This document shows, in pieces, positions 15,161 through 62,573 of a stretch of 64,000 nt of DNA. Origin of the DNA: Podospora anserina (Eukaryota); assembly GCA_017654855.1 (NCBI GenBank), contig CM030333.1, positions 248,001 to 312,000 of the forward strand, in the 5' to 3' direction. The position numbers and the translations under genes are program-made. Numbering within the stretch: the stretch's first letter is position 1; each line of letters opens with the position of its first letter. The notes under the pieces were generated by a model. The model was given only the letters and a program-made list of their open reading frames with translations, made no database searches and was not told where the DNA came from.

Positions 15161-15208
15161 AAAACTATATTAAGATTCTCGAAGAAATCGAAAATCCTAA
15201 TACACTAA

Positions 15209-15278
15209 AACCTCGGCGGAAATCGAACCCGCGCCTCCGACGTAATAGCCGGCGTACTAGGTACTATACTACGAGGTT
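15209..15278 (-). ncRNA. tRNA-like gene inside Gypsy element
   Basis: AACCTCG TA GTAT AGTACCTA GTAC G CCGGC TATTAC GTCGG AGGC GCGGG TTCGATT TCCGC CGAGGTT: perfect 7-bp acceptor stem, T-loop/B-box, 6-nt anticodon loop. Confidence 0.75.
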
Positions 15279-15935: not shown

Positions 15936-16048
15936 TATAAAAGTAAAGAAAAGTAAAGGGGAATACTTATAGGAAGGAAAAGACGGGAAATAAACAGTTA
16001 TTTTAAAGCTTAAATCGACGGGACTTTAACCTAAAAGAAAAGGTATTA

Positions 16049-29000: not shown

Positions 29001-30967
29001 CTAGTAATTTAAAAATAGGGTCCTTTAAAATAGCTTGTTTTAACCTTTAAAAAGCCTATATTTCCTTTCACCTTTACCGAAACTCTACGTTTTTCTTAAT
29101 TAAATAATTAAATACCTATGTGATCATTACATATTTCCAAAAATAAATCTTATAAAAAGGTTATAAATTTTTAAAATTTTTTAATACATATTAATAATTA
29201 TAACGTAAATTTCTTTTAAATAATATAATTTTCCTAGGTTTTATCTAAACTTTACTTAATAATATTAAATATCCTAACTATATTGTTTTTTATATATAGA
29301 ACTTACTCTTTTCTTTATTAATTGAAGGTCCGGCTTTATATAATACGTTAAATGTTTGTTATATATACTATTTATATTGTGCTAAGATATATAAATAAAG
29401 AAAATTATTACCGAAATAATATATTATTATTTTATTAAGATATTTCTGGATTATATAATGAGTAAGAGATTAAAATGTTATAGGTATATTAAATAATTCG
29501 AATGATATTATAAAGTATTTAAAATATTTATAAGGTATATAAAACCCTATTTTTTATTATTTCTTTCTTTAATCTATATATAAATATATTTAATACGTAT
29601 ATTTAAGTATATAAATTATTATATTTTAGTTAATTAACTCCGTAATTTGGTTATTAATAGTAATAAGTAGTTATTCTTTACCGCCTTTTATCGGTACGAA
29701 GTAAATAGGATATTTTACTAGTAATATAAACTCATTAATATATTTTCTTTTTAAACATTCGTCTTAATATTACCGTAACGTTTTTGTTTACTTACCGTTA
29801 ATATAATAAACGTTAAATAACCGTAGCTTAACTCTTTCTTTTAACTTAATTACGTAGTTCTATAGTCACCGCTTTAAAATCACTTTTAATATTTAACCGT
29901 AAATGTTATATATCTTGAATATTCTACCGGTACCGCTTTTTTCCCGCCTTTTTTTATATTATTATAATAAACATATTAATTAACCTCCGATATTTTTATT
30001 CATATTATTAACCTTACTTCTTTGATTTTACCGCCTATATCTATAAATTATACTATTACTTTTTTAACACCTTACGGTAGAACTATACAAGATACTTATA
30101 TTATACTTTATTCTATATATACTTTTAATTTACTATTTTTAATTAAATACTTTTAAAGGTCTTTTAATGGTAAATAACTACTATCCCTTTAATTGATATT
30201 TAAGTTAAGATTTAATACTATAATTACCCTATAATTATATCCTGCGAGGGTTCTATCTTTATAATATTAAGTATAATTATAATGATTTTCCCTTCGATTA
30301 TAATATTTAAAAATAATATTTCTCTATAAACTCTTTACGTTAAAACTAGTATTTATATTACGATTAATCTTTTTTAAATATCGTAATTTGGTATACGAAT
30401 TATAACGAAATCAAATTTATTTCCGTACTTTTATTTACTAATATAACCGGTTAAATATTTTTTAAATATATTATAATTTAAAAGCGTTTATCTTTCCTAC
30501 TTTTCCTTAATATAATAGTAATTTTATTAATAAATAGCGGGTTATTATTTTATTTTTTTACTTTATACCGATATTTCCGATAATACTTTTTATAGTCTAT
30601 TAAAATTACCGGCCCCCGCGAAAAGCCGGAAATCGTTTCTAAAATAATTATATTCTTTAAAAGGTTTTTCTTATTCAAAGTCATTTAATAACGTAAATTC
30701 TTTTAATTATTTCCGCTTAATATCCTTTTACTTCCGTTTTTAACTTGTTTAATATCTTACTATACTGATATTTAATAGTAGTTTTACTACTTAATCATTT
30801 CTCTAAATTTTTTTGTTTAATAATACCGTTTAACCTTTTTTCGTAAATAAAACGTATAGTCCGGGTTTAAATATTACGTAAGTACTACTTTATTTTGTAA
30901 ATCTATATTATTTTTTGTACCTTATTCTTTTACCTATTGAAAGTAATATCGTATATATTTAAATATA

Positions 30968-32450
30968 ACGTATATTATAAGCGAGTCGTACATATAAGCG
31001 AGTCGTACAGTCTCCACCACCCTACAACAACTATCCTCAATTATACCGCAACAACATTAGGAAGCAACTACAATTACATCAGAAACGGCTGAATCAAATG
31101 ATTCCCCAGCCTCCTGGCAAGTGCGCGCGTTATGGCCAGGCTTGCCGCACACACCACAGCACCGAACCGTCGTACGAGCCCCCCCTGCACTACCGCCATC
31201 CGGCTGTATTTCTTCCACTACCTCCCCACCCACGGCCTTCTGGTCTAGTAGATCCTGTGCATCTTGCACAGTAAGTGATCCTCCGAGCCGTACACGTGTT
31301 TTTTTAGTTCTCCGGCGCTTACTTAGTGCCTCATTGGCCTTACGGAGCGAAGAGACCTCTGCCTGTAAGAGGGCCACTTAGTGCATTACAGCTATCGTAC
31401 CCTTAGTAAATTGATCTATAGCACCTAATATTAAAGTCGGGGAGTTATTTTGATGGTTGGTAATACGAGTCTTGATAAGCGTTAGGTGTGAGTTAGCTTC
31501 TCGGGGGTTTTATAGTGTTTGGAATACCTAAAGGAGTACCGTTATTTGCCCTTCGTACGGGACGATGTATAATAATCGAAGTGCTTGATCCAATCTAGGC
31601 CTACCGGATTGGTAGTCCAGCTATTATCGGTAATTGCGATACGCTAGGTAAACAGTAAATTACACTCGGTATACCAGTTAGTAAAGTAGTATTATGCGGC
31701 TAAAATAATAAAGGGCGGGATAGCCTAGCCGAGGGCATTAACTCCCTAGATTACCGTTACCCACTCGCGGTTACTAGGCTGGGCCAGTTTTACCTTACTA
31801 AGGCCGTCCGAGGTTATAACTACCATACCTACGAAAATAATACCTATTATAAACCTAGTCTCGTCGAAGTTATAAATATCGTTATCTATAATACCGTACT
31901 TAACCTTGGTATTCCGTACGAACGTAAACCACTCGGCAATAACCTTCGGATCCTCGCACTTAGCCCTCTGGTAATCGTATCTACGCGTAAAACGCATACG
32001 GAGCTGTGGCTGGCGTTTAACGAAGTTGTGTGCCCAGAGCTTGCTAACAGGGGGCGCGTCGCGTACGCGCAGCAGTTGGTTAGCCATATCTTCCACACCA
32101 CGTAACCTTAGTGGAAAAGCTCGCGTAGATAGCTTAATAATATAGTAAATAATAGCCTCCTCTTCGGATTGAGTAAGCTTCTTCGATCTGGGCGTAGTAT
32201 CGCGTCGTGCAGGCCGGCCGGCGCGTCGGTTAGAGAGAGTCATAGGTGGTACGTTGTAAAGCTTAGCTACAGCTCGGAGGCTTAATTTTTCGTCCTTTTG
32301 GAGAGCCTTAAGGGCTAAGAGTATCCTGGCTTCCTTTGAAGTAAGAGGCATGTTGGGTTGTGGAAAAAATTGATGTTAGGTGTAAGGAGGACGCGTCGTG
32401 GTGGAGACTGTACGACTCGCTTATATGTACGACTCGCTTATAATATACGT
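30968..32450 (-). mobile_element. Fot1/pogo (Tc1-mariner) DNA transposon, internally deleted
   Basis: 53-bp perfect TIRs (acgtatattataagcgagtcgtacatataagcgagtcgtacagtctccaccac), TA target duplication, 1483 bp. Confidence 0.95.
31057..32351 (-). pseudogene. Fot1/pogo transposase relic
   Basis: HTH/CENP-B-like N-terminus, YNFDET motif, C-terminal CxxCxxxGHxxxxC knuckle; RIP stops and ~375-bp deletion near 31550. Confidence 0.92.
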
Positions 32451-42000: not shown

Positions 42001-44419
42001 TTTTTTATAGTAGCTTTTAAAAAAAAAGTAGAAAAAGAATTATATTAAGATTCGAGGCTTAATATTATCAATAAGTATATCGCTATAGCTATACGGATCG
42101 ACGATAAGGAATTCTAATATAGTATAAAGAAAAAAGGTACTACTGAGGATTATTATAGTCATAACTACTTTAACGATAAATATAAACGGTAATACCCTAA
42201 TACTAATTACCTCGGTACTATATGTATAAGACCTAAACGTTAACGCTAATAGTAATAGAGGCTATAGGGCGGAACTAGGTTAGGAATAACTTTAAGTATT
42301 TCAATTATAGGGAAGTGAAATACTTTAAAAAACCCAATCAGATATTCAAATAATTTAGGTAAAAGAAGAAGGTTATTATAGTAATTATTATATCGAGAGG
42401 ACCGAGAATTATAAAAGTCGTAACTATTAAATTCTAGAAGAACAAAGTTGTATATTTCGAAAATACCTTTTATTAATATATTAAATAAACAAACGTGGAG
42501 TTTTAAGAATATAAGGATATTATAAAACGGTTAAAGGTAGAATATAAAGAAGGGAATATTAAATCATAAACTTTATGGGATTAAATAATATAAACTAGTA
42601 CGAAAGTTAAGAAGTATAAGCACTCTATTTTACAAAAGAAATAGATAAAGCAAAGAGTATTAAAAATTTAATATTTTTAAGATGAAATTATAATTATATA
42701 ACGGACCTACGTTACGGACAAGTATACATATAAAAGCTAGGAAAAGCATTACGAAAATAAAAAGGTTATTCATATTAAGCTTTTGACATACTCCGGATAA
42801 GTACTTTTACTTATATAATATAAATTCCATAAAAGAAACGTAGTATAATTTTGTTTTAAATATCCGCAATATCGGCAAATACTTTAGTTTTAAAATATTA
42901 TATACAAATATACAAAGTACTATTAAAGTTAGTTTTTATATAGCTATTAGCCGGTATATAAAGAGGGTAAGAATGGAAACTTCGAACCGGTTAAAATGAC
43001 TAAAATTAAATAGGAATAATACGAAAAGAAACTAAATGATTATTTTTTATAGAGAGTTTAAGACCCGGTGAAAATAAAACCAATCTTTCAATAAAACGGT
43101 TTATACTTGATATATAAGATGTTATTTGAATAAAATAAAGTAGAATGATAATAAGATTATGTTAAAGGAATTCGCTTTAATATATTCTAAAAGTCTCGAC
43201 TTTATATTCTACTTATGAAAGAAGGTTAAGCAGTATTATAAACTATTAACCGAGGTTAAAACTAATACTATAGCTAAAGAATAGAGGCGTAACCGAAGGA
43301 AAGTTCTATAGGGTATAAACGACGAAAGGTAGGAAGAAACTTAACGGTAATTATTGAATGTATTTAATAAGATTAAATAATTCAGCATATGAAAATATAT
43401 TGAAAAAAACATTATCGTTTAAGAAACGACTTGCGACCTTTCGCAGGGGCCGCTACAATTTAACGGACTACGAAAAGTGCCGTCGGAGATATCGGCGTAA
43501 AGCAAAGGTACATAATAATAATCCGATATTCGTTAGCAAAATCACTACTAGATAAAAAAGAAGTAAAAGAAATAAAAGTTTTAAGGAAATAATAGATATA
43601 ATATATTGAAAAAATCTTAGAGTAATAATATTAATAAATAAAAGTACGGAAATAGATTTAATTTTGGTATAAATTATATATTAAGTCAAAATATTATATA
43701 AAAGAAGAATCCATCATCACATAAAAACTATTTTTGACTTAAAAAGTTTATAAGGAAATATTAACTTAAGCTATTATAATGGAAAGAAAAATAACCTTAA
43801 TTATACTCAATAGTATAAATATAAAGCTTTCAAACAATATCATGTTAAGATAATTGTAATCCCAGGATTATAACCTAGATATCAATTAAAAGAATAGTAG
43901 TTATTTACGATTCAAGGAAGTTTAAAAAATATGTACGTAAAAATAGGAAATTAGGCGTATATATAGAATAAAGTATAAAAAAAAGTACCTTTTATAATAC
44001 TCCCGTTAAGAGCCTAAAAGGTGATAGTATATTCCATTAATATAGGTGGTAAAATAGAGAAAAGTAAAGTTAACCACGTTAATAAAACTATCGGAAATTA
44101 ATAAATACGCTTATTATAATAACGTAAAGAAATGTAAGAAAAAGGCGGTACCGGGACAATATTAAAAACATTTGGCTTTTATGGCTAAGTATTTAAAGGG
44201 ATTTCTATAATAAGGACTGTAGGATCACGAAATTAAATTTAGAAAAGGAACTAATTACGGCTATTTGAGGTCTACAATATTAACGATAAGTAAGATAAAA
44301 AACTATAAAAGTATATAAACGAGAATTTTAAAAAAAGGATATTCTAGGGAGTTTATATTATTAATAAACAACCCCATATTTTTTGTACTAAAAAAAACGT
44401 TAAGTTAAAATTATACATA

Positions 44420-46281
44420 ACGTATATTATAAGCGAGTGACCCATATAAGCGAGTGACCCACTTCCCACCACACCGTAACAAACTATCCTCAATTATACT
44501 GCAACAACACTAGGAAGCAACTACAATTATATTAGAAACGGCTGAATCAGATGATTCCCCAGCCTCCTGGCAAGTGCGCGCGTTATGGCCAGGCTTGCCG
44601 CACACACCACAGCACCGAACCCTCGCACGATCTCCCCCTGCATTACTATTATCCGGCTGCGTTTCTTGCACTTCCTCCCTATCCACGGCCTTCTGATCCA
44701 GTAGATCCTGTGCCTCTTGTATAGTAAGTGACCCTCCAAGCCTCACACGTGTTTTTTTGGCTCTCCGGCGCTTACTTAGTACCTTATTGGCCTTACGGAG
44801 CGAAGAAACCTCTGGACGAAGGAGAGCCACTTAGTGTATTATAGCCGTTGTACCCTTAGTAAGCTAGTTTACCGTAGCTAGTATTAAAGTCGGGGAGCTA
44901 TTTTAATGGTTAGTAATGCGAATCTTAATAAGCGTTAACTGTGAGTTGGCTTCTCGAGGGTTATATAGTGTCTGGGAGACCCAAAGTTATATAGTACCGG
45001 GCCGTAAGTTTAGAGGTATTAACGTACGAAGCTTTATATCTAACTTAAAAAGCACCCTCTCTGGATTATACGGTATAAAGTTAATACCCGTAAAGCTACC
45101 CTATATATTCTTCTCTATTATAAAGGCGAAAAAGGTTTCGCGGAAAGTATAAAGGAACTCGAGCTTACTTATATAATTAATATATATACGCATTAAGTCC
45201 TCGATCTAGCGACCGTACGCCTATTTTAACGGCCTAAAGTAATTAATATCGAGTAACTGGAAAAGGTAGGAGGAGTATAGAGGTATATAGAATATAATAA
45301 TATTATTTTACTAATAATAACGCTCGAATTTAATTAAGTAGTAACTTTCATAGCCGTTAAGGATTAATAACCGGTATTTACTTTTTATACGGGGCGCTAT
45401 ATAGTAGTCGAAATACTTAATTTAATCTCAACTTACTATATTAGTAATTTAATTATTATTAATAATTACGATACGTTAAATAAATAATAGATTATATTTA
45501 ATATATTAATTAGTAAAGTAATATTATACGGCTAAAATAATTAAAGGAAGGATAGCTTAGCCGAGGGTATTAACTCCCTGGATTACGGTTACCTATTTGC
45601 GGTTACTAAACTAAGTTAGTTTTACTTTACTAAGGCTATCCGAAGTCGTAATTACTATACCCGCGAAAATAATACCTATTATAAACCTAATTTCGTTAAA
45701 ATTATAAATATTATTATTTATAATACCGTACTTAGCTTTAGTATTTTGTACGAGCGTAAATTACTTAGTAATAACCTTTAGATCCTCGCATTTAGCCCTC
45801 TGGTAATCGTATTTACGCGTAAAACGCGTACGGAGTTATAGCTAGCGTTTAACGAAGTTATGTGCCCAAAGCTTGCCAATAAGGGGCGCGTCGCGTACGC
45901 GTAGCAGTTAGTTAGCTATATCTTCCACACTACGTAATCTTGGTGGAAAAGCTCGCGTATATAGCTTAATAACGTATTAAACAATAGCCTCCTCTTCGGA
46001 CTAAGTGAGCTTCTTCGATTTGGGCGTAGTATCGCGTCGTGCAGGCCAGCCAGCGCGCCGACGCCCTAGAGTCTTACGATCGACTCCATAGATCTTAGCT
46101 GCGGCTCGTTCGCTTAGATTCTTGTCGTTTTGAAGTGCTTGGAGGGCTAAAATTATGTGGGCTTCATTTGAATTAGAAGGCATCTTGGATGGTTGAGGAA
46201 ATTGTTGTTGAGTGCGAAGGTGTTATGTTACGAAGGAAGTGGGTCACTCGCTTATATGGGTTACTCGCTTATAATATACGT
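44420..46281 (-). mobile_element. Fot1/pogo DNA transposon, full length (1862 bp)
   Basis: 47-bp TIRs with one mismatch (acgtatattataagcgagtgacccatataagcgagtgacccacttcc), TA duplication, splits the RT LCVDYR motif. Confidence 0.95.
44510..46183 (-). pseudogene. Fot1/pogo transposase relic
   Basis: ORF fragments MPSNSNEAHIILALQALQ.. and ..RCCGVCGKPGHNARTC; centre riddled with RIP stops. Confidence 0.92.
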
Positions 46282-48959
46282 TAAACTACCGACGATTATA
46301 TAACGAAATAGTAGAAAATAAGTACCCGCTACTGCTGATGATTAATTTATAAAGTTAATTAAATAAAGTATAATATTTTATACGCTTAAACTACCTCTTA
46401 AATTTATTTATATTTAAATTAGGGAAAAGAATAAATAAAAAATAATATTCGGTATACTTTATATTTATTTCAAATACTTTATAAGATCATTCGGGTTAAT
46501 TAATCTACTTACGGCGTTTTAATCTTTCGTTATATATATAATCCGGAAATACCTTTATAAAATAAAAATATATTATCTTAACGACGTTACCATTTACTTA
46601 CGTACTTTAAAGAAATTCCAATACAATATACGAAAAATAAACGACGTATTATACGGAACTAAAGTTTTACTTAATAAAGAAAAGCGAGTTCTATATACAG
46701 AAAATTATATATTTTGGATATTTAATATTTTTAAGTAAAGTCCGTATAGAATCTAGAAAATTTATAGTAGTTAAAGACTAGCTTAAGGTATAATTATGAA
46801 TACATATTAGCAAAATTTAAAGTTTATTAATTCTTATCGGATTTTTATCCGGAGATATATAGATTTTACGCGATTATTGAACTATTTAAGTAAGAAAATA
46901 TAAGGCTCTGGTAAGAGTAGGAAGAAAAGTAGGCCTTTTAAAAGTTAGAAAAATTATTTTAAAGGACCTAATATTCAAATTGCTAGATCCTAATCAACTA
47001 TTTAAAGTCGAGATTAATTTATTAAGTTATACAATCCGTAGATGATTAGGCTACCGAGATAATAACGGAAAGTTATATTTGGGAGCTTTCTTTTCGAAAT
47101 AGCTAAAAGGGGTATATTAAAATCATTCAACTTACGATAAAGAATTACTTGTTATTATCGAAGCGTTTCAGAAATAAAAGCTATATTTTAATAATCTTAA
47201 TTACGAAATGTAGGTCTATGTACATTAGAAAAACTTACAATACCTTACTATTACAAAAGTCCTTAGCGTATAGTAAACTCGATAGTCAAAATTTCTTTTG
47301 AAGTATAATTTTTAAATTATTTATAAAAAGAGTTCGAAGAACATAAAACAAACATATTTAGCCGGTAGGCGGACCACTATAAAAATATACATAGGGAATG
47401 GTTATTATTATTTAAAAAGACGTTGCAACATATCCTTAAAAGATTTACTTTAATTATAAATAACATATTATATAATATATTATAAATAAATTACGTATAA
47501 GAGAATATAAAGGAAAAATAAATAACGATATACGGAATAATACTAATGAGAAAAGTCAAAGCTGTAAAATAGTTAAAAGGATACTTAAGGATATCTATAG
47601 TATAAGAAGCGGACCTACGTAGAGCTAGGTGCTAAAAAGGTATTAACAATGAAAATCTATAGGTTAGGGTTCGGAAAAGATATAGGTATTATTAAAATTA
47701 TAGAAAAAGAAACAATACTTTAATTAATTAAAAACTAAAAATAATATGAAAAAAGCTATTTAGTTATTTTATACGTATCAAAAAGTAAAGGTCATAAAGT
47801 ATAACCCTTGTAGATTTTTTAGGTTATTATTAATAGCTAAATGGCTATAGAGTTTAATTATAGTGAACTTTACTACGAAGTTACTAAAGTTAAAGAATAC
47901 GGTAACCGGTATTGAATATAATAGTATATTAACGATAATCGATAAATTTATTAAATAAAGGTACTTCTTACTTTAAAGAAAGGTCTAACTGATAAAGTAA
48001 TTAATGGATATAGTATTATAACACATTATACTAATATAGGTATAATTAAAAGAATTTGTCACGGACCGCGATATTAAATTTATATCATAGTTTTAAAAAG
48101 CGTTAATAATAAAATGAAAGATAGTAAGTAAAGCGTTTTCCGCCTAATACCCTTAAATAGACGGATAGACGGAACGGTTTAATTAAATTATAAAATAGTA
48201 TTTACGGAATCATTTCAATTCTAAGTAAAATAACTAGGTTAAACTACTACATACCGTATGATTAGTGAACAATATATTATTAACCGAGACGGTAAAAGTA
48301 ATATTTGTCTTCATAAATTATAAATAGAAAGTAAGCTTATGTTAGGGACTGGATATAAAGTTGTCTAGGGCTACAGTCAAAAGAAGTAAGTTATATATAC
48401 TTTATAGTAATCTTAAGGAAAAACTAGAGTTTATAAGAAATAAGATGCGGAAATACTATAACTTCAAAAAGCTCGAAGGACTTTACTTTAAAGGGGGGAT
48501 ATAGTATTCCTTTTTATACGTAATTTACGTATTTAGAGAACTACTAAGAAACTAAACTATAGGAAAGTAGGCCCATTTAAAGATAAAAGGAAAAGATTAA
48601 AAATAGTATTTAAGGTAAAGTTACTTAATATAATATATTTGTAACTATATATCGTTTGAATTTTATTTTTAAAACTCGTATTATTTGTAAATAAAGTTAA
48701 GATTTAGAAAGTAACGGAGGACGGAAAAAAATGTATAATATAGAAAGACTTTTAGAGTTATAGTTTATTTAAACTTAATTAAAATCCTTAATTAAATAAA
48801 TAGATTACCTAACTATGGATAATTTATAGAAACTATCGGTAAACCTAAAATATTTACATAAACTGAAAAAATTGTATTGGTAATATGTAAACTGACCTAA
48901 GCTAAAAGAAGATTAAGTATTTAAGTTTATAGTCGGGTACTTATTAACTTAAATACAAA

Positions 48960-49029
48960 AACTTCAACGAGAATCGAACCCGCGCTTCCGATATCATAGT
49001 CGATATACTATATACTGTATTATAAAACT
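48960..49029 (-). ncRNA. tRNA-like gene relic inside Gypsy element
   Basis: Same 70-nt length and position as the other copies; GCGGGTTCGATTCTCG T-arm retained, rest RIP-damaged. Confidence 0.6.
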
Positions 49030-49080: not shown

Positions 49081-49726
49081 TTAAAACGTAAAAGAGTTTT
49101 ACCGGTAGTACTTGAATTAATTAAGAAGAAGGGACCGGTTACGTTAAAGCTAGGACTTAGGGAAAGATCAGAAGGGTAGTCGAGGCTTAAGGGGGAATCT
49201 AAGACATAAAGAGCCTATAAAGCGGCGTTCTAAATGGCTTCCAGCTATATAGAGATATCGTAAGAAGATTCGGGCGGTACGGAAATAGCCGACTATACTA
49301 CCTGAGTGTTTTCCTTTAAATACTCCGCGCAAATAGCCGCTCTTTACGAATATAGAGAGAGAGACGTATTTATCTTATTCCGAGAAGCTTAATGATTGAT
49401 TACGAAAGTGAATCCTTAAGTTTTTACTCTTTACGTTCGAGTTTATTTTGCTTTTTTAAGGCTCGAGTTACTATAAAGCAATTAATTATAATATAAAAGT
49501 AAAAAAGATATACTTACGAGCGGAGCCTACGTTAGAACCGTTATACAGGATTTTACGGCGTACGTATTTAAAATACTGACAAGAGCCGGAGATTACAGTA
49601 TAAGGGATCCTGAAAGTAAAATAAATATAGTAAAGTGTTATAGTAGATTTATTGCGGAAGATTCGTAAAGCGAGAGAAAACTAAGTGTTTAGTTTTACAA
49701 TAACGTTTCTATATACAGTTAAATAT
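49081..49726 (-). pseudogene. Antisense Zn2Cys6 ORF relic, variant C
   Basis: 49632-49543 reads Y-YI-Y-FTFRIP-Y-TVISGSCQ-Y-FK-Y-VRRKIL-Y-NG; six TAC/TAT codons with spacing X2,X6,X8,X2,X6. Confidence 0.7.
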
Positions 49727-49817
49727 AATAAAGTACGGTAAAAAAAAAGATTTATAACATTATTAAAGTTAAACAAAAATTAGGCTGTAGGGACTTTAGC
49801 CTAAAAAGGAAGTGTTA

Positions 49818-50163: not shown

Positions 50164-52651
50164 TTTACCTTTAAAATTTATTTAGAATAATTTCATTTTT
50201 TTAGGAAAAGAATTATGATATATTTAATGGGAAATTTATTTAACATAAAGTTTTGAAACAAATGTAGGTAGTTGATTAAAAAAAATTTAAAACTTGTGAT
50301 TAAGAAAGCAGAATAATAACAGAACTTTTGAAGTTCATTTTATAAAATAATATATACTACCATTTAAACGTTATAATCATTCTGGAAATTATAAAAGCAT
50401 TTAATAACTAACTTGAATTACTTATATTAATAAGGAATTACCTCTAAAAGCTGAAAGTTATTAATTTGATTAGTACTAAATTTATTAAAAGCGTTATATT
50501 ATGAGAAACTAGTTAAATATCTGAATACTTTCTATAAAATACTATGATCACTATTTCAAAAGAAAGTTGTCATTTTATTATTAATGATTTTATAAATTAT
50601 TCTTTACTTATGAGAATTTAATCAAGTAGGTGCTTTTAAATAAAAGGCTTTTTGTAGAGCTTGAAGTAAAAAAAAGTAAAATCTGAAAATATTCTATACT
50701 AACTTCTTTAAGTATTTTCGTTACTTTTAATAAGGTATTCACCGTACTTCTTCCCATATTATACCGGTATTGTACTCTTCTTTTTCTACTTTAATCAATG
50801 TCCAAATTCTAGATTTATATATTAGCATTAATACATCTTTTAATAATTTTAAGAATTTTATAAACTCATTATATTACATTTTTTAAATTCTCTTCTAACT
50901 TATGTTATATTGAAAAAACGCGTAAATATATTTGGATCATAAATATTTATTAAGTATATCAATCATTAATTTTTTAATGGTTAAGGTAATGTATTTTCCA
51001 AATTATATATGTTGTTTTGTTTGTATAATATAAAATAATATTGAATATATCGGAATTTGATTTTGTAATAAATAATAAGTTTATTTCTATATTTAATAAA
51101 GAACATTTTTACATAATATGAATTAAACAATTTGATATATTAATTTGGCTTTTATATAACAGGGGATTAATTTTGTATAGTTTTATGCAGGGTTTATAAC
51201 GTTATCATTTGCGGCTACTTTAGTTCTTTTTATGTTAGTATTAACTTCAACGTTGTAATAGTGGATAAAGCTATTATTCCTATCTCTTATATTAAACTCT
51301 GGCGCTTTGATTTTTAAAAAATAAAGTTTGATTACTACTAACAATTATTATATTTAATATCGATATGTTTAAAAAAGAAGATTGTTAAAAAAGTACCAAA
51401 ACTACTTATAGTCCTCTTCGGAGAGAATATTATTAAACAGAAAAAATTATGAAAAAGATTATTTATAATTTATGTAATTAAATTATCATAAATTAAAATA
51501 CTATAATTATATAAACTTCATTATTAGAATAATTGAAATCTAATATACAATTGTTTTTTATATTTTTGAATTGGTACCATTTTATAATTATTATAAAGCT
51601 AACGTACATTATAAGCGAGTCGCGCACTGGCCATTGCGACGCGTTCTCTCTACACTTAACATCATACTTCTCTACAACTCAACATGCCACCTACTTTAAA
51701 AGAAGCGAGGGTAATCTTAGCCCTTAAAGCTCTCCAAAAGGATGAAAAATTAAGCCTCAGAGCCGCGGCTAAGCTCTATAATGTACTACCAACAACCCTC
51801 CGCGACCGACGCGCTGGCCGGCCTGCACGACGCGATACTACGCCCAATTCGAAGAAGCTTACTCAATCAGAAGAGGATGCTATTATTCAATACGTTATTG
51901 AGCTATATGCGCGAGCTTTTCTACTAAGATTGCGTAGTGTAGAAGATATAGCTAACTAACTATTCCACGTACGTAACGCGCCCCCTATTAGTAAGCTCTA
52001 GGTATATAACTTCGTTAAACGCTAATTATAACTCCGTACGTGTTTTACGCGTAGATACGATTATTCAAGAGTTAAGTATAAAGATCTAAAGGTTATTGCT
52101 GAGTAATTTACGCTCGTACGGAATACTAAGGTTTAGTACGGTATTGTAGATAATAATATTTATAACTTTAACGAGATTAGGTTTATAATAGGTATTATTT
52201 TCATAGGTACAATAGTTATAATCTCGGACGGCCTTAAAAAGGTAATACTAATTTAGTTTAATAATCGTAAATAGGCGATTATAATTTAAGAAGTTAATAC
52301 CTTTAGTTAAACTATCCTTACGTTTATTATTTTAGCCGTATAGTACTACTTTACTAATTAATATACTAAGTATAATTTCCTAACCGACTAGTATATCGTA
52401 ACGATTAATAATAATTAAACTATTAATATAATAAGTTTAGATTAAATTAAGTACTTCGATTACTATATTACGTTCCGTATAAAAAGTAAATACCGGTTAT
52501 TAATTTTCGATAGTTACGAAAGCTATTATTAAACCGAATTCGAACGCTATTATTAATAAAATAATATTATTACGCTCTATATACCTCTATATTTTTCTTA
52601 TTACGTTTAGTTATTTAATATTAATTACTTTAAGCTACTAAAGTAAGTGTA

Positions 52652-53035
52652 TGTCACGGCTTGACACTTTGGTGGGGCGCGGGGCGCACCACGGGCCAAT
52701 CATTAGTACAGGAGCGAGGACCAATTAAAGCAGGATCATTGGGATCGAGGATCGATCCAGAAGAGTCAATCCCAAAAGGGACAGTATCGATAGGATCGAT
52801 GGTCGAGTCAATCGATCCAGGATAGTGCTAGGCTTGGCACAGGGTCTATATATACGGAGGAACTGGCTGGTGTAGATAGACAGTTCCGCAGTATGTAATT
52901 TAAGCTTGTATTCACGGTATTTAGTGTTTACATTGAGACATCTTGTTATGCACTATTTAGCTACACCGAACCAATTGTTAGAAGTTACCTTTAACCAGTA
53001 TCCCTTTCAGAGGTTCTGTACAGGGGTTCGTCACA
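52652..53035 (+). repeat. 5' LTR (GATCGA-type U3)
   Basis: tgtcacggcttgacac...ggggttcgtcaca; CCAAT boxes; TATA at ~52847. Confidence 0.97.
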
Positions 53036-53037
53036 CG

Positions 53038-53046
53038 TTGCATACT
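53038..53046 (+). promoter_or_regulatory. Self-priming primer-binding site
   Basis: TTGCATACT is the reverse complement of AGTATGCAA in the LTR (52890-52898, one RIP change; intact in LTRs 2066, 33482, 38696); no TGG tRNA-type PBS. Confidence 0.75.
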
Positions 53047-53092
53047 CACTTCAACTCTGTCACGGATAAGTTAAAGGCGTCTTTTTACTACC

Positions 53093-56000
53093 ATGGCCCA
53101 ACCCGAGAACGTTCAGATGGGAGGCGTCCCGCCTAGCCTAACTATCGAGGGACCTTTTACGGCAGACGCCAGGTTCAGGGTCACCACGGCTCAATAGCTT
53201 ATCGATCGCGTTAAAGAGTTTAAAGCCGAAGCCCAGTAGACCAGGGAGCAGGTTCTTGCTCTCTCGGCGGCTAGGCCCACGCACGTAACTAAGTTCCCGG
53301 CACCGGAGCACTATAGAGGCGGAAAGGCAGAGCTTAAAGGTTTTTTAATCTAGTTTAAAATTTATTTTCGTTACTACCCGGAATAGTTCGATACGGAGGA
53401 GTCGAAGGTAGTATACGTAGCTACCTGGCTTAAGGATAAAGCTTTTATTTAGTTCGAGCCTATTTTTAACGACTATTACGAGGTAGTGGCGGAGGACCAG
53501 AAAGAGATTACTGTCCAGTGTTTTCGGAGTTACCGAGCCTTCGAAATAAAGTTTAAAAAAATATTTAGGGAATATAATAAAGGTAGGTGCGCGTAAGAGA
53601 AGCTCGCGAATCTACGGTAAATACGTTCGGTAACGGAATATATTATTTAGTTTAAAATTAATAATTTACGTAACGAAATTAACGATAAGGGATTAATATA
53701 AACCTTTTATAATAGCCTTAAAGAAAAGGTAAAGGACGAATTATATAAGGAGGAAAGGCTTAACACTATCGATAAATATATTACTATAGTTATACGGATC
53801 GATAATAAATAATTCTAACGTCGTGCGGAGAAGAGAAACTATAATAATCGGGGTTATTACGGAAATTACCGCTCTAATAATAAACGTAAATAATAATATT
53901 TAACTACTAATTACTCCGGTACTATATATTCGGGATTTATAAATATCGATACTATATAGTAATAAAGGTTATAAGGCTAGGGCTAAAGTAAAGATAACTA
54001 TAAGTATTTTAATTATAGTAAAGTAAGATACTTTAAAAAGGATTACCGGGCACTTAAGTAACTTAAATAAAAAAAAGAGGTTACCGTAATAATTATTATA
54101 TCGAAGGGACCGAGGGTTATAGAAGTCGTAGCTATCGGGTATTAATAAAGTAAAATAATAAACTTCGAAGAAAACTTTAATTAATATACCGAATAAAAGG
54201 AAATAGAGTTTTAGGGGCTACGGGAAGTAATGGAAAGGCTAAAAGCAAAGTATAAAGAAAAAAACCTTTAAATATTAATATTCTAGAATCGATTAATATA
54301 AATTACTATAGAAATCGCTACGAAAGTTATTAAGGATAATAACGTTATATAGTAGGAAGGACTTATTATATAAACGATATTAAAAAAGTAATACGGTAAG
54401 CGTAGGATCGTTATTTCGCAAGAAATATTATTATTTATAAAGCTCGTATATAAATATTAAGAAAAATATTAAAAAGGTAAGAAGGTCGCTAATATCGGGA
54501 TCGCGAAATTATTAAGAAATATATTTATACTTATATAATATATACCCTATAAAGGAAATATAATATAATTTTATTCTAAATATCCGGAATATCGGAAAAT
54601 ACTTTAATTTTAATATATTATATACGGATATATAAAGTACTACTAAAATAAATCGCTATACGGTTACTAGCCGGTACGTAAGTTTATACTAAAATATATA
54701 AAATACTACGTTAAATATACGAACGGTTAGGATATAAATAATAATATATATTTTTAGGAAAAAGTGGTACTAGGTTAGTGCCTAAACCCAAATTACGCAC
54801 TATATTTATAAAAAAAAGTTAAACGATATTATTAAATAAAAGTATTTAAATAAACGATTAAATAAAAAAACCGTTATCGGATATATATATAAAAAAATAT
54901 TAAATATATAAAAGACGGAAAATAGGAGGAAACTAGGTAAGTATAGTTAAAAGACTTTATATTATTAAATAACCCGGAGTAAAAGGATATTTTTAAACGA
55001 TATAACTATTTAAAAAACGATTCGCGGCCCTTCGTAGGGGCCGGTAATCTTTAATAAATTACGAATAGTATTTTCGGAAGTATTAGCGTAAGGCGAAGGT
55101 ATAGGATAATAATCCGGTACTCGTTAACGAGGTCGTTACTATATAAAGAAGAAGTAAAAAAAATAAACGCTTCTAGGTTATAGTATACTAAAAAAATATT
55201 TAGGCGGTAATATTAATAGACGGCGGTATAAAGACAAACCTAATTTCGTTATAGTTCGTATACTAAACTCGTATACTATAAAAAAAAAAAAAGGAATGGA
55301 TCGTTATATAAAAATTATTTCCAACGTAAAAAGTCTATAGAAAAACATTACCTTTAAATATTATAGTCGAAGGAAAAATAACTTTAATTATATTTAATAT
55401 TATAAATATAGGACCCTCGAAGGATATAATCCTAGGGTAACTATAGCATAAAGACTATAACCTAGATATTAATTAGAGGAATAGTAACTATTTATAATTA
55501 AAAGAACCTTAAAAGTATTTAATTAACGATAGGAGATTAGGCATACGTATAGAGTAGAGTATAGGATAAGTACCTTCCACGGTACTACCGTAAGGAGCCT
55601 AAAAAGTAATAATATACTTTATCGATATAAGTAATAAAATCGAAAAAGTAAAGTTAACGACGTTAATAGAAATATCGGAGGTTAATAAATATATTTATTA
55701 TAATTATATAAAAAAAAATAAAAAAAAAGTAATATTAATAAAATATTAAAGATATTTAACCTTTACGGCTAAATATTTAGAGGGACTTTTAAAGCGAGGA
55801 CCGTAGGACTACGAAATTAAATTAAAAAAAGGAGCTAAGCTATAGCTATTTAAAGTTTACTATACTAACGATAAATAAAATAAAAAACTATAAAAGTATT
55901 TAAACGAAAATCTAAAAAAAAAATATATTAGGGAGTCTATATCGCTAGTAGGATACCCCATATTCTTTATACCGAAAAAGGACGGTAATTTACAATTATA

Positions 56001-58641
56001 TATAGATTACCGCTAGCTAAATAACGAGACGGTAAAAAATAGTTACCCGCTATCGTTAATATCTAAGTTACGGAGTTAATTAATAAGGGCGTGATATTTT
56101 ATACGCTTAAATATACCTATCGGGTATACTTATATACAGATTAAAAAAAGAGATAAATAGAAAATAACGTTTTGTATACCCTATAATTATTTTAAGTATC
56201 TCGTAATACTATTTAGGCTAACTAATACGCCCGTAACGTTCTAATCTCTCGTTAATTATATAATCCGGAAGTACCTCGATAAAATAATAATATACTATTT
56301 TAACGATATTTTTATTTATTTATATACTTTAAAGGAATATAAGTAATATATATAAAAAATACTCGACGTACTATACGGAGCTAGACTTTTAATTAATAAA
56401 AAGAAAAATAAATTCTACGTATAAAAAATAATATATTTAGAATATTTAATATCGTTAAGTAAGGTTCGTATAGAATTTAAAAAAATTATAGTAATTAAGG
56501 ACTAGTTTACACTATAATTATAAATATACGTTAAGGAATTTTTAAGGTTTATAAATTTTTACCGGATATTTATTTATAAATATATAAGTATTACGCGGTT
56601 ATTTAATTACTTAATTAAAAAGGATATAGAGTTCCGGTAAGGGTAAAAAGAAGAGTAGGCCTTCCAGGAGCTAAAAGAGGCTATTTTAAAGGACCCGGTA
56701 CTTAAATTGCTAGATCTTAGTCGACCGTTCGAGGTCGAGGCGGATATATTAGATTATACGATTAATAAATAATTAAGATAGCGAAACGACGATAAAAAAC
56801 TATACTTAGTAACTTTCTTTTCGAAGAAATTAAAGGAGGTACGTTAAAACTACCTAATCTACAATAAAAAGCTACTTACTATTATCGAAACGTTCGAAGA
56901 ATGGAGGCCCTACCTTAATAATACTAATTATAAAATACAGGTCTATACGGATTATAAAAACCTATAATACTTTACTATTACGAAGGTCTTTAACGTATAG
57001 TAAACGCGATAGTTAAAGTTTTTTTCGGAATTTAATTTCTAGATTAATTATAAAAAAGGTTCGGAGAACGCTAGGGTAAACGCACTTAGCCGGCGGGCCG
57101 ACCACCACAAAGATACATCCAAGGAGTCACTACTATTACTTAAAGAAACGCTAAACGGTACTTTTAAGTATCTACTATAGCTATAAATAGAGTATTACGT
57201 AGTGTATTGCGAGAGGGCTACTTCCAGTAAGTACTAAAGGAAGTTAGGCAGCGATATTATAGAGTAATATTAATAGAAAAAATTAGAGCCATAAGGCATC
57301 CAAAAAAATAGTTAGGGAAGATTATAGTATAAGAATCGAGTATACGTAATACTAGGTAATAGAACGACATTAGTGATAGAGATTTATGGATCGAAGTTCG
57401 GAGGATATATAAGTATCGTAAAGACTATAGAAAAAATTAAATAATACTTTAATTAATTAAGGATTAAGGACGACGTTAAAGAAATTATTTAATTATACTA
57501 TACGTATAAAAAAACGAGGGTTACGAAGTATAAGCCTTATAGATTTCTAGAGTTATTATTAATAGTAAAACGACTATAAAGTTTAATTACGATAAATTTT
57601 ATTACTAAATTACTAAAGTTTAAAAATACAGTAACTAGCGTTAAGTATAATAATATATTAACGGTAATCGATAAGCTTACTAAATAAGTATACTTCTTAT
57701 TATATAAAGAAACCTAATCGGTAAAGTAATTAATAAATATAGTACTATAATATATTATATTAATATATATATAATTAAAAGAATTTATTACGGACCGCGA
57801 TACTAAATTTATATTAAAGTTTTAAAGAGCGTTAATAACGAGGCTCGGGGTAATAAGTAAAGCGTCTTTAGCTTATTACCCTTAGACGGACGGTTAAACG
57901 GAACGGCTTAATTAAATTATAAAATAATATTTACGGAATTATATTAATTTCGAGTAAAATAATTAGGTTAAACTTTTACTTATAGTATAATTAATATATA
58001 ATATATTATTAATTAAAACGACTAAAGCTATACCGTTCTTCGTAAATTTTAAATATAAAATAAACCTACGGTAGGGACCTAGCGTTAAAGTACCTAAGGC
58101 TAGGGTTAAAGTAAATAAACTATATATACTCTACGGTAAGCTTAAGTAAAAACTGGAATTTATAAAGAAAAGGATACGGAAATACTATAATACTAAAAGA
58201 CTTAAGGAACCTCGCTTTAAAGGGGGAAATATAATATTCCTTTCTATACGTAATTTACGTATTAAAAGACTTAGCAAGAAGCTAGACTATAGGAAAGTAG
58301 GCCCGTTTAAAGTTAAAAAGAAAATATCGGAGACGGTATTCGAACTAAAGTTACCTAGTACGATACGTCTACGGTTATATACTTTTCACATTTCACTTCT
58401 GGAACCCGCACCACCAGCGAATAAGGCTAATATACAGGTAGTAGCGGAGGATAAAGAAAAAGAGTACGATATAGAAGAAATACTAGATTTACGGTTTAAC
58501 AGAGGTTAATTAAAGTATTTAATTAGTTAATTAAGATATCCAGCCACAAATAACTCGTAGGAACCAGAAGCATATCTTAACTACCTAGATAAGCAAAAAG
58601 CATTCCACCGGTAATACCCGGACCGACCAAAACCTAAGTAA
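53093..58641 (+). pseudogene. gag-pol relic
   Basis: De-RIP motifs: KFPAPEHY.GGKAELKGFL, CFNCGKVGHFKKDC (~54005), LIDGG protease (~55215), YYFDDI RT (~56293), YTDHKNL and DALSR RNase H, TDRDTKF and AYHPQTDGQTER integrase, GPFKV, EYDVEEILD..NSWEP chromodomain; true stop uncertain. Confidence 0.92.
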
Positions 58642-58696
58642 TAAAAAGATCTGTGCCCAAGCCACGGAGAGGTATCCATGAACTTAGACACAAAAG

Positions 58697-58766
58697 AACC
58701 TCGGCAGGAATCGAACCTGCGCCTTCGACGTGGTAGCCGACGTACTACACACTACACTACAAAGTT
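58697..58766 (-). ncRNA. tRNA-like (tRNA-Gly-GCC-like) gene inside Gypsy element
   Basis: AACTTTG TA GTGT AGTGTGTA GTAC G TCGGC TACCAC GTCGA AGGC GCAGG TTCGATT CCTGC CGAGGTT then CTTTT; cloverleaf, A/B-box-like motifs, T4 run. Confidence 0.75.
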
Positions 58767-58817
58767 AGAAAGTATGAAGGGGACTAAATATAAGTAGTAC
58801 CACGCGCCTCAACCACC

Positions 58818-59501
58818 CTAGGGAGGGGAAGGCGCGCCGACGGCAACATCTTGGGCGGCCAGGAAGGAAGGACCGGCCACGCCCGGATCCAGGGAGAAGT
58901 TAGGTGACCAGTCGAAGCCTGAGGCAGGACCTAGGAAAGAGAAGTCGGAAGGCAGGGTATTGGAAGACTCTGCCGTGGGACGGCCCCGGGGATCTGGAGA
59001 GGCGGGGGCCGGAGGAGGAGGAGGAGGAGCGTCGCCAGGCGGCGAGACAGACTGTGCGGCCAGCGCAGCTTCCTCCTGCTCAACACGCTCCAGCTCTTCC
59101 ACACTGTCAAGGCCACGGGAGACGGCCGCAGCCATCCGCTCAAACCACATTCGTTTCTATAAGCGTAGGCGGTTAATTTTCTAATCCAAGGCCGCGCGTT
59201 GGGACTCGGCCTCTACCATCTCCGTCTCTAACTAATCGTGTTGGGAGATGACCTTACGGAGCTGCTGGACGGACAACCCACGAGCGTCGCAAAGGGATTA
59301 GTTATACTGTATATAGGAAGCGCAACGATCGGAGACGGAAGGGGAAATCTTGCAGGAGAAGCCACGCCTCTCGTAAAAGGAACAAATACGCTTTATAATA
59401 ATGGCAAACCGTAAGATAGTAGCAAGTAGCTCGTCACGATCCGCGGTTTTCGAGTGCAAAGGTTTAATACCGGGTCGCGCCTTACTTACGCGGTTAAACA
59501 T
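58818..59501 (-). pseudogene. Antisense Zn2Cys6 / coiled-coil / Pro-rich acidic-tail ORF, variant A (227 codons)
   Basis: Track ORFs 59298-59501 and 58818-59150 are in one frame, separated by four TAA/TAG codons consistent with RIP of Gln; C-SF-(Y>C)-ERRGFS-C-KISPSVSDR-C-AS-(Y>C)-IQYN*SL-C. Confidence 0.85.
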
Positions 59502-59591
59502 AATAAAGCATAATAAATAGGGGAAAAAGGGGAGAACTTACAAGCGTTGGTAGACGTAGGAGAGTAGGCTAGGCCGACGGGACTTCGGCCT

Positions 59592-59602
59592 AGGAGGGGG
59601 AG
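59592..59602 (+). promoter_or_regulatory. Polypurine tract
   Basis: aggagggggag 5 nt before the 3' LTR. Confidence 0.8.
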
Positions 59603-59607
59603 CGTCG

Positions 59608-59991
59608 TGTCACGGCTTGACACTTTAATAGGGCGCGGGGCGCACCACGGGCCAATCATTAGTACAGGAACGAAGACCAATTAGAGCAGGATCATTAGGA
59701 TCGAGGATCGATCCAGAAGAGTCAATCCCAAAAGGGACAGTATCGATAGGATCGATGGTCGAGTCAATCGATCCAGGACAGTATTAGGCTTAGCACAGGG
59801 TCTATATATACGGAGGAACTGGCTGGTGTAGATAGATAGTTCCGTAGTATACAATTTAAGCTTATATTTACGGTATTTAGTATTTACATTGAGACATCTT
59901 ATTGTACACTATTTAGCTGCACCGAACTAATTGTTAGAAGTTACCTTCAACCAGTATCCCTTTCAGAGGTTCTGTACAGGGGTTCGTCACA
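59608..59991 (+). repeat. 3' LTR (GATCGA-type U3)
   Basis: Direct repeat of 52652-53035. Confidence 0.97.
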
Positions 59992-62573
59992 ATGTATAAT
60001 TATTTAATCGAGGACTTAATACGTATATATATTAATTATATTAATAAGTTCGAGTTCCTCTATACTTTCCGGGAGGGTTTTTTCGCCTCTAAATAAAGAA
60101 GAATATATAGGGTAGCTTTACGGGTACTAGCCTTACGCCGTACAATCTAAAAAGGGTATTTTTTAAACTAAATATAAAGCTTTATACGTTAATACCCCCG
60201 ACCTTACGGCCCGGCACTCTATAACTTTAGGTATTTTAGATATTATAAAACCCCCGAGAAACTAATTTATAGTCTACGCTTATTAAAACTCGAATTACTA
60301 ATTATTAAAATAGCTTCCCAACTTTAATACTAGTTACTATGGACTAGCTTACTAAGGGTATAATGGCTATAATATATAAGGTGACTCTCCTTCGGTTAGA
60401 GGTCTCTTCGCTCTGTAAAGCTAACGAGGTATTAAGTAAGCGCCGGAGAGCCAAAAAAATATGGGTGTAGCACGAAGGATTATTTACTGTGTAAGATGTA
60501 AAGGATATACCTGACTAGAAGGCCGTGGGTGAGGAGGCAGCGCAAGAAACGCAGCAGGATGGCGGTAGTGCAAGGGGGGCTCGTACGAAGATTCGGTGCT
60601 GTGGTGTGTGCGGCAAGCCTGGCCATACTGCACGTACGTGCCAGGAGGCTGTAGAATCGTCTGATTTATCTATTTCCGATGGAATTATCGTGGTTTCTTA
60701 GTATTGTGGTTGTATAATTGAGGGTAGTTATTGTAGGGTAACGGAGAGTGCGCGACTCGCTTATAATGTACGTTAAGGTTTATTAGGTTTGAGTTAATAT
60801 TATATTTTCAATCATTAAAGTGTATATATATATATATCAAGGAGGTTTTATACGTAATTTACGTACTTTCCAAAATGTCTTTACCCTATCTTACCTATAC
60901 CCTACTTATCCTATAACCCTTCTTACTTTTGTTATTAGCTATACCCCTATCCCTACTCTCTCCTCTTCAGCTTTAATCTCTACTTTTCAATAACTCTGAT
61001 TTGGTATCCTACTTAAAACCGTGTAAAATTACATTTTTCAAAAAGCTCTATATTATACTATTATTCATTTCTTTCCATAAAAATCTTTATACAAACTTAT
61101 TATTAGTTAGTATATAAATTACTATATATTAAAAGTGAAATATAAGTAAATAAATGTTGTTCTTATTAACTAGATTATTTAATTTGTATCTAAAGATTGA
61201 TTCTTCTTTTAATTCTTTAATTAAAATTTAATCATCCTTTTCTCTTCATAGGAAGCAATATTTTATCGGTATTATATCTATCTTTTTCACACTAATCTCG
61301 TAGCCTATTATACTAGTTGGTTTTTTATATGACGGATAAATAGTTCTTTTCTGTGTAGTTCTCTTAAAGCCATTTTAGCCCCCTATTGTTTATATTTCAT
61401 TGGTCGTTTCAACACTGACGAGGCTATTTTGCCGTCTTTTATATTACCTTACGCCCGGGCACTTTGGTTTTCTTCTTTTAAATTACTTATTATAATTATA
61501 CTTTATTTATAGGGACCTAACTAGCTAGGTCTCTACGTGTAGAAGTCTTCCTTATACAGGTTAAAGTAAGAAAATCCAAAGTTATAAAATTTTTATATAC
61601 TTATTTTTTCAATGTATTTGTCACTTTCAATAATTAACTAATCATGGTTCTTTTTATTAACATTATAGTATTATAGTCTTATCTCTTATTTCTTTTTTAT
61701 TAAAAATTGCAAACTTATATTTAACTTCTCTATTTTATTTTTTTAGAATTTTTCAACTATATAATACTATTGATAAGTTTTGTATGATGTTTAAAATCTT
61801 TATAAATTCTTTTCTATTTATATTTTCTGATTCAATTATGAAGTTAAAGCTAAGATATACCCAAATTATTAGTTTAAACTTTCCTCAAAGTAAAAGGTTT
61901 AAAAGTTTGATTATAAAAATTTATTTAATGATTAGTAATGATTAGTCTATCAGCAGTTAAAGTATTCTATTTCAAATCATTCAAATTTTTTAAATTTTCT
62001 TTAGGTTAATAAAATAAATATTGGTTTTATTCAGGATAGTATTTAATATATCAAAATTTACTTACGGTTTTTAAAACTATTTAAGAGAAAATATATAGAA
62101 TTAACTTCCGTTTTCTATTATTGATTTAATAGTATATTTCATTCTTGAGTTATTTATAAAATAAAAATTAGAATCTATACAGGTTTTTAAAGCGCTGTAA
62201 TATCATTATTAACGATTGTTTGAATTATTAATCATAAATATTTATTTTATTATTTTCATAAAAATACAGTTAATATTTCTTTTCTTTACACTATACTTAA
62301 ATGTTTTTCTTGAATGATTTATTATTTTTATCCCCTATTTAGTTTTATATTAAAGGTTTTATTAAAAAATCCATTAAAATTATTTGAGAGAAAATAGAAT
62401 ATCTAAAGTGTTGAATTATTTATTAAAGATTAGAATAATAGTATAATTATTCCAGTATTAAACCGTAATTGAATTAATAAATATATATAGATTATAAATA
62501 TTCAACCAAAGGTTTCTCTTATTTTTAATAATATTTCATTTCAGAATAGAATAATCAAAAATTGAAATAACAT

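Follow-up and report, generated by a model that had tools for sequence, protein, structure and literature searches.

What does a gene that resembles a fungal zinc-cluster regulator do on the opposite strand of a retrotransposon? The question is raised by a stretch of 64,000 nucleotides from Podospora anserina (NCBI GenBank assembly GCA_017654855.1, contig CM030333.1, positions 248,001 to 312,000 of the forward strand), here termed the window. A preceding sequence-only reading of this DNA noticed an antisense open reading frame (ORF) at positions 58818-59501, near the 3' end of a Gypsy-type element, and likened its product to GAL4-type Zn(II)2Cys6 transcription factors. We consider it reasonably probable (roughly 0.6) that this ORF is an accessory gene inactivated by repeat-induced point mutation (RIP), which a lineage of fungal Ty3/Gypsy chromoviruses bears on the antisense strand, in the interval from pol to the 3' long terminal repeat (LTR).

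The RIP-damaged ORF is located on the minus strand, where positions 59501 to 58818 translate into a single frame of 227 codons followed by a terminal TAG and broken by four in-frame stops, of which the first, at codon 68, is TAA and the other three, at codons 90, 107 and 115, are TAG. Re-translation thus returned the same frame that had earlier been assembled from two ORFs across four TAA/TAG codons. Six positions of the frame, C40, Y43, C50, C60, Y63 and C71, encoded by TGT, TAC, TGC, TGC, TAT and TGC, respectively, form the motif CX2[Y]X6CX9CX2[Y]X7C (four Cys and two Tyr; spacing 2, 6, 9, 2, 7). The proposal that four cysteines are intact and two were lost through TGY to TAY changes agrees with the alignments: Y43 and Y63 stand opposite cysteines of the closest named relative, an intact hypothetical protein of 187 amino acids (aa) from Hirsutella rhossiliensis (P0002; BLASTP, 52% identity, E 2e-36), and the corresponding columns are invariant Cys across 91 six-Cys relatives. 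Intact relatives do carry Cys at both Tyr positions. The translation likewise shows, as described, a heptad-like segment, a Pro-rich stretch and the acidic/aromatic SDFSFLGPASGFDWS tail.

The four stops had all been attributed to RIP-mutated Gln. In the alignment, inspected by eye, codons 68, 90 and 115 face Gln of some relatives, and accordingly CAR to TAR changes caused by RIP fit at least three of the four stops, and codon 107 faces Ala of most relatives. With a GC content of 0.57 and a RIP composite index of 0.87, compared to 0.27 and 0.14 for pol, the antisense ORF has been far less mutated than the pol gene of the same element. Given its many relatives (see below), the joined frame represents the damaged remnant of a genuine gene and not a product of chance, and the copy in the window is a dead pseudogene killed by RIP.

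The window as a whole is AT-rich (GC 0.26 overall), shows strong RIP signatures and consists largely of copies of a single Gypsy-type element that have diverged from one another. The antisense ORF is enclosed by a complete Ty3/Gypsy chromovirus at 52652-59991, the 5' LTR (52652-53035, plus strand) and 3' LTR (59608-59991, plus strand) of which measure 384 bp each, have TG...CA ends and are 93.75% identical. The element is flanked by the target-site duplication copies GTGTA (52647-52651) and ATGTA (59992-59996), which agree in four of five bases and differ by a single G/A transition of the RIP type. Between the LTRs lies a heavily RIP-mutated gag-pol region (53036-58640, plus strand), and in one pol frame, with stops read as X, Pfam matches were obtained to RVT_1, RT_RNaseH, RT_RNaseH_2 and SH3_Tf2-1, reflecting the order reverse transcriptase, RNase H and integrase. 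The pol translation yielded no Pfam match to a chromodomain; its C-terminal end was recognised by eye as chromodomain-like. A polypurine tract-like run, AGGAGGGGGAG (59593-59603, plus strand), ends 4 nt upstream of the 3' LTR and, from its position, would serve as the plus-strand primer. The end of pol (around 58640) and the start of the 3' LTR at 59608 are separated by approximately 970 bp, and this interval harbours the ORF on the opposite strand. The LTR pair, the target-site duplication and the reverse transcriptase, RNase H and integrase matches thus place the ORF inside a bounded, complete chromovirus, and for this window they confirm the location that had been assigned to it, downstream of the chromodomain, ahead of the 3' LTR and on the opposite strand.

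The arrangement recurs in the other copies of the element. Four copies that include the 3' end of pol are present in the 64-kb window, and in three of these a homologue of the ORF region follows pol at the same place. A degraded homologue in copy A (15339-16048, minus strand) is represented by colinear tblastn pieces and reached a score of 284 in a transition-tolerant local alignment, compared to at most 82 for shuffled sequences and at most 57 for four unrelated stretches of the window. Copy C (49089-49817, minus strand) is degraded as well and scored 193.5 in the same kind of alignment, with shuffled sequences reaching at most 77. Both copies are mostly invisible at the protein level, and transition-tolerant DNA alignment was needed to detect them: a search of the window copies with a hidden Markov model (HMM) returned positions 15523-15618 of copy A alone (E 0.0027), and copy C gave no protein-level match with either tblastn or the HMM. 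The Cys codons in the ORF-bearing copies read TGY or TAY, with TAY at all six Cys positions in copy A and at three of the six in copy C. A fourth copy, in reverse orientation at approximately 26200-27110, showed no match to the ORF (score 42, no better than shuffles). Within the window, the ORF region is therefore a feature of most copies of the element family (3/4), in keeping with the earlier view that the gene belongs to the element.

The encoded protein belongs to a large family. A phmmer search against 1.84 billion representative sequences recovered 198 proteins at E<=1e-3, of which 75 reach E<=1e-10 and 10 reach E<=1e-30; the majority comprise 150-220 aa. Word-index protein searches contributed few matches (1, 6 and 1). 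The family is not covered by any Pfam model. Named members come from the genera Hirsutella, Staphylotrichum, Corynascus, Gaeumannomyces and Fusarium, all of them Sordariomycetes, and the neighbouring clusters in the ESM Atlas, with 77-140 members each, are likewise from Ascomycota. Six cysteines with the spacing 2 / 6-7 / 8-10 / 2 / 6-8 occur in 99 of the 162 proteins examined, and in a 91-member six-Cys alignment, where individual members are 25-65% identical to the first sequence, these cysteines are the sole invariant columns. The family consensus starts with a basic N-terminus (MSxRVxK...) and a short helix (LLxxIL), followed by the Cys module CSxCExxGxxCxxSxSDSSRCxECVRxxxSxCD, a long helix running via RLRKQKKxW and RGIDxxEELERVEREEAE, and a variable tail with a DW motif. 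Some members are longer than usual. P0003/P0153, P0010/P0157, P0025 and P0018 carry 40-130 extra residues ahead of the MSxRV start and have short motifs such as "PLL" in common there, and P0007 and P0010 share a C-terminal tail past the usual end; these N- and C-terminal extensions look like read-through of conserved flanking DNA.

Traces of RIP are also found among the relatives. The motif is present in 119 of the 162 proteins, and in 20 of these (19 besides that of the window) at least one Cys position is occupied by Tyr. The 20 Tyr-bearing proteins have 16 different proteins as their closest intact relatives, and the share of F, Y, N, K and I amounts to 0.13-0.40 in the Tyr-bearing proteins, compared to a mean of 0.13 in intact members. 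Cys to Tyr damage and an AT-shifted composition in many lineages support an element-borne family, short of proof, since RIP can also leak into single-copy sequences next to repeats. Profile scans of metagenome contigs, viral contigs and genome contigs confirmed no homologue locus. Among the sequencing runs listed as matching, none was recorded as RNA; sampled words were recovered at 0.95-0.97 in 15 DNA-type or unlabelled runs from one organism, and at 0.13-0.52 in five runs guessed to be RNA.

Is the six-Cys module a zinc cluster of the GAL4 type? Zn(2)-Cys(6) domains adhere to the spacing rule CX2CX6CX5-12CX2CX6-8C, and the window copy conforms to it if both Tyr are counted as Cys; family members that have seven residues from Cys2 to Cys3 depart from the classical X6. 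The Pfam family PF00172 (Zn_clus) was matched by 7 of 32 relatives at E<=1 and by 17 of 91 at E<=0.1 (best E 7.9e-5), and was the commonest family among the members. A profile of the Cys domain retrieved nine PDB sequences at E<=10, among them LAC9 (E 0.093), Cep3 (twice), RSC30, LEU3 and PUT3, which we take to be Zn2Cys6 proteins (6 of the 9); the weak matches to PUT3, RSC30 and Cep3 run in register, some of them over all six Cys. AlphaFold2 models were obtained for P0002 and for the isolated domain, with a predicted local distance difference test score (pLDDT) of 84.2 and 84.9, respectively. In Foldseek searches of the PDB with both models, Pho7 and PPR1 were the only matches; structure prediction thus leans in the same direction as the sequence matches, but weakly (E 1.2-6.0, TM-score <=0.45). 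One neighbouring ESM Atlas cluster has been automatically named "Zn(2)-C6 fungal-type domain-containing protein".

Other candidate relationships were discarded. Profile matches to TAL effectors in the PDB (E 0.0018-0.023) are spurious, as they sum over an 18-residue repeat motif and include no single significant stretch; a C-D/Q-A-x-G-L-S/T-x-x-Q pattern after Cys6, in the alignment columns near CDxxGxSxxQL, weakly resembles the TAL effector repeat unit (summed E 0.0018), a likeness judged coincidental. Pfam matches to MIF4G_like_2, DUF465, zf-C4H2, CENP-H and similar families are sub-threshold and fall on the coiled coil.

The architecture downstream of the Cys module is dominated by helices, which the AlphaFold2 model of P0002 places at residues 78-128 and 134-155. 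A complex prediction with two copies of residues 33-160 and zinc gave a score of 0.51, compared to 0.00 for the best control. At that mark, the calibration stated for the tool recovered 21 of 30 solved same-chain pairs and none of 23 single chains from microbes, and 17 of 29 solved same-chain pairs and none of 30 single chains from eukaryotes. At least 92% of contacts are shared among the dimer runs, and the partner reaches a pLDDT of at least 81. The predicted contacts 98-112, 105-105, 87-119 and 84-123 add up to about 207-210, and such a near-constant sum indicates an antiparallel coiled coil. The prediction thus supports, but does not show, a homodimer held together by an antiparallel coiled coil. 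Solved GAL4-type activators pair via a parallel zipper. Hence, of the minimal dimeric-activator layout that the sequence-only reading had envisaged, the six-Cys module, the long helix, the acidic/aromatic tail and a predicted dimer are retained, but the orientation of the coiled coil differs.

Several observations weigh against an accessory protein of the zinc-cluster type. In the predicted antiparallel rod the two Cys modules would reside at opposite ends. The window protein has no Pfam match at E<=10, PF00172 included. When the ten best PF00172-like members were scanned singly, one exceeded the gathering threshold of 21 bits (23.1 bits) and nine scored 13.6-20.5; moreover, the best PF00172 stretches are register-shifted, such that the first CX2CX6C half of the family falls on the latter half of the profile. 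A strongly basic character is typical of Zn2Cys6 domains that contact DNA; across 99 members the segment from Cys1 to Cys6 is nearly neutral, with a mean net charge of +1.4 (range -3 to +7). The named homologues are annotated as "hypothetical protein" and nothing more, and the linkage of the family to LTR elements beyond the window is indirect, consisting of RIP footprints, which can also arise in genes adjacent to repeats. Relatedness to the GAL4-type clusters is thus suggested by the spacing and by the weak profile and fold matches, without reaching the Zn_clus threshold, and the six-Cys module is plausibly either related to the binuclear cluster, if divergently so, or similar to it by convergence.

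The ORF does not stand alone. A tRNA-like unit (58696-58766, minus strand; Rfam RF00005, 43.1 bits over the full model length, gathering score 29 bits) lies 52 nt downstream of the antisense stop on the same strand. Equivalent units are present in copy A (15208-15278, minus strand; 43.3 bits) and copy C (48959-49029, minus strand; 30.7 bits), and in all three copies the unit is antisense and flanked by the end of pol on one side and by the ORF on the other. ARAGORN reported an irregular anticodon loop, "(acca)", for the unit at 58696-58766 and named no anticodon. Judged by eye from the alignments, the anticodon loop comprises 6 nt in all three copies and hence is one base short, which suggests that the unit is tRNA-like and probably non-decoding. 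A B-box-like GGTTCGATTCC and a T-run after the 3' end are kept in the alignment of the units. The unit was considered as the element's own primer and rejected in this role, since its 3' end finds no complementary sequence following the 5' LTR. The tRNA-like unit could be a 3'-end processing signal, an RNA polymerase III (Pol III) unit or captured DNA.

How does the locus compare to known systems? The sequence-only reading held that standard chromoviruses carry only gag and pol. This premise is contradicted by the literature, where antisense extra ORFs at the same position have been published, as the accessible portions of PMC7264820 and PMC8365987 attest, including the brtn gene of Boty. According to the available text of PMC7264820, antisense ORFs in the interval from pol to the 3' LTR have been described both in plant elements and in Boty, which occurs in Botrytis and Sclerotinia; a biochemical function is not assigned to them there, and a role like that of retroviral accessory genes is suggested. 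The same portions of PMC7264820 state that captured genes occur in one or few copies of an element and conserved extra ORFs in most copies.

Boty hosts are Leotiomycetes and the named relatives of the window gene Sordariomycetes. The original brtn paper is reportedly that of Zhao et al. (2011, Virology 417:248). Like the window gene, brtn is an extra antisense gene of a fungal Gypsy element and is situated between pol and the 3' LTR, as far as the excerpts of PMC7264820, PMC8365987 and PMC4227169 go, and these excerpts mention neither a Cys motif nor a tRNA-like unit; the likeness noted here is one of position and description. In the portion of PMC8365987 available to us, brtn is drawn in BcGypsy1 and said to be missing from the current B05.10 annotation; brtn is also mentioned in excerpts of PMC4227169 and PMC5987419. 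Among the 30 family clusters looked up and the search listings, no match bore the name BRTN. The plant antisense ORFs (Grande gene23, RIRE2, Retand, PvRetro13) resemble the window gene in position, orientation and presence in most copies, and some of their proteins are nuclear and some of the genes possess their own antisense promoter, as given in part of PMC7264820. They differ in that they stem from another kingdom and from non-chromovirus lineages, and neither the window protein nor the families listed for its relatives yielded a Pfam match to a plant mobile domain or an SMC-type protein.

With the Zn2Cys6 proteins GAL4, PPR1, PUT3, LEU3 and Pho7 the family shares a compatible six-Cys spacing and, after it, the succession of linker and coiled coil. 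It deviates from them by a longer Cys3-Cys4 loop (8-10 residues), a nearly neutral cluster, a helix of approximately 50 residues that is predicted to pair in antiparallel fashion, the lack of the fungal-specific transcription factor middle domain and an overall size of only about 190 aa. The accessory regulators HBZ and Tax of HTLV-1 and Tas of foamy viruses offer an analogy, insofar as they lie near the 3' LTR, in antisense in the case of HBZ, and may be compared with respect to a dimerising coiled coil; homology of the window protein to HBZ, Tax or Tas was not seen. HBZ is a basic leucine zipper (bZIP) protein and not a zinc-cluster protein. A comparison with retroviral accessory regulators is made in general terms in the accessible part of PMC7264820. 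Full-text literature searches for a zinc-cluster extra ORF, or a Neurospora- or RIP-related one, in LTR retrotransposons returned no description, and the main texts of Muszewska 2011 and crapaud 2024 mention neither "antisense" nor "zinc". The antisense position of the ORF has thus been published before; new are a large, conserved and unannotated family of recognisable design at this position and the adjoining tRNA-like unit.

The evidence has to be weighed against three other explanations. The ORF might be a passenger, that is, a host zinc-cluster-like gene that was captured once along with a neighbouring tRNA gene and is of no use to the element, most of its relatives being host genes. Such an origin would account for homologues whose annotation in genome assemblies is that of ordinary hypothetical proteins (two reside on contigs measuring 8.5 and 14.2 Mb), for family clusters that mostly were seen on 1-3 contigs only, and for an ORF and a tRNA-like unit that adjoin on one strand and thereby resemble a segment of the host genome; the capture of genes by retroelements is discussed in the sections of PMC7264820 at hand. 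Three of the four copies carry the ORF, however, more than those sections lead one to expect of captured genes, which they describe as confined to one or few copies, and the 19 other members from 16 lineages with RIP-type Cys to Tyr changes and AT-biased composition look typical of repeats. On balance, we regard a passenger as unlikely. The ORF might as well act as RNA, in that the antisense transcript pairs with the genomic RNA to feed or regulate RNA silencing. This possibility is raised for antisense extra ORFs in a passage of PMC7264820, and Boty-type elements of Botrytis are strong sources of small RNAs according to part of PMC8365987. A function of the RNA itself does not require conservation of the protein, but members that share no more than 25-65% identity with the first sequence all retain the six Cys and preserve the helix pattern, which renders this explanation very improbable.

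A third explanation is that the gene is element-borne and yet does not encode a DNA-binding transcription factor. The six-Cys module would then be a knob for protein or RNA contacts, stabilised by zinc and mounted on an antiparallel coiled-coil rod, and the protein an adaptor or chaperone, which might, for instance, carry element RNA or cDNA into or out of the nucleus, act in tethering or counter silencing. The low net charge of the Cys module, the antiparallel geometry of the predicted dimer and the sub-threshold, register-shifted Zn_clus matches are in line with such a role, and Cer1 of Caenorhabditis elegans provides a precedent, as it has a non-Gag accessory protein needed for export of the genomic RNA (PMC10309623, from the part available). 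Conversely, the sole fold matches and most of the weak profile matches are to DNA-binding Zn2Cys6 domains, and the basic N-terminus seen in the consensus could supply DNA contacts. An adaptor or chaperone of this kind appears rather unlikely to us.

In the preferred reading, the intact accessory gene encodes a protein of about 190 aa, composed of a basic N-terminus, a short helix, the six-Cys module CX2CX6-7CX8-10CX2CX6-8C, which is most similar to a divergent Zn2Cys6 cluster, a helix of approximately 50 residues that is predicted to form an antiparallel homodimer, a second, acidic helix and a disordered tail with the conserved DW. The protein would bind zinc, dimerise and act in the nucleus on nucleic acid or chromatin to the benefit of the element; candidate roles are in LTR-driven transcription or in the chromatin state of the element. 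The gene may be transcribed from its own promoter beside or inside the 3' LTR, and the tRNA-like unit might be part of the same antisense module. A bolder version of this scheme envisages a two-part antisense module in an Ascomycete chromovirus lineage, next to the 3' LTR, comprising a zinc-cluster-like dimeric regulator, drawn from a family of about 200 clusters, that would bind the element's own LTR or nearby chromatin in the manner of retroviral accessory regulators, and, immediately 3' of its gene, a tRNA-like unit that would either generate the 3' end of the mRNA through tRNA-processing enzymes or recruit Pol III machinery to act as a chromatin boundary. We consider this combination speculative and rather improbable.

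Two features of the surrounding DNA deserve mention. RIP is uneven within 52652-59991: the LTRs and the antisense ORF show a GC content of 0.44-0.57 and an index of 0.85-1.02, the corresponding values for pol being 0.27 and 0.14, a pattern to be expected if related copies of pol were more numerous in the genome than those of the element's ends. Furthermore, a second repeat family begins right after the 3' LTR, with copies at 60007-60394 and 44817-45205 and at 30959-31533 and 44411-44986 that are 80-85% identical to one another; apparently, the element has inserted into, or next to, repeats older than itself.

The recognisable architecture, the approximately 200 sequence clusters and the intact members in culturable fungi render the putative accessory-gene role experimentally approachable. 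Recognising the family as element-borne would improve the annotation of both genes and repeats in fungal genomes. Were the two-part module to prove true, the family of about 200 clusters would constitute a major, hitherto unrecognised class of fungal retrotransposon accessory proteins.

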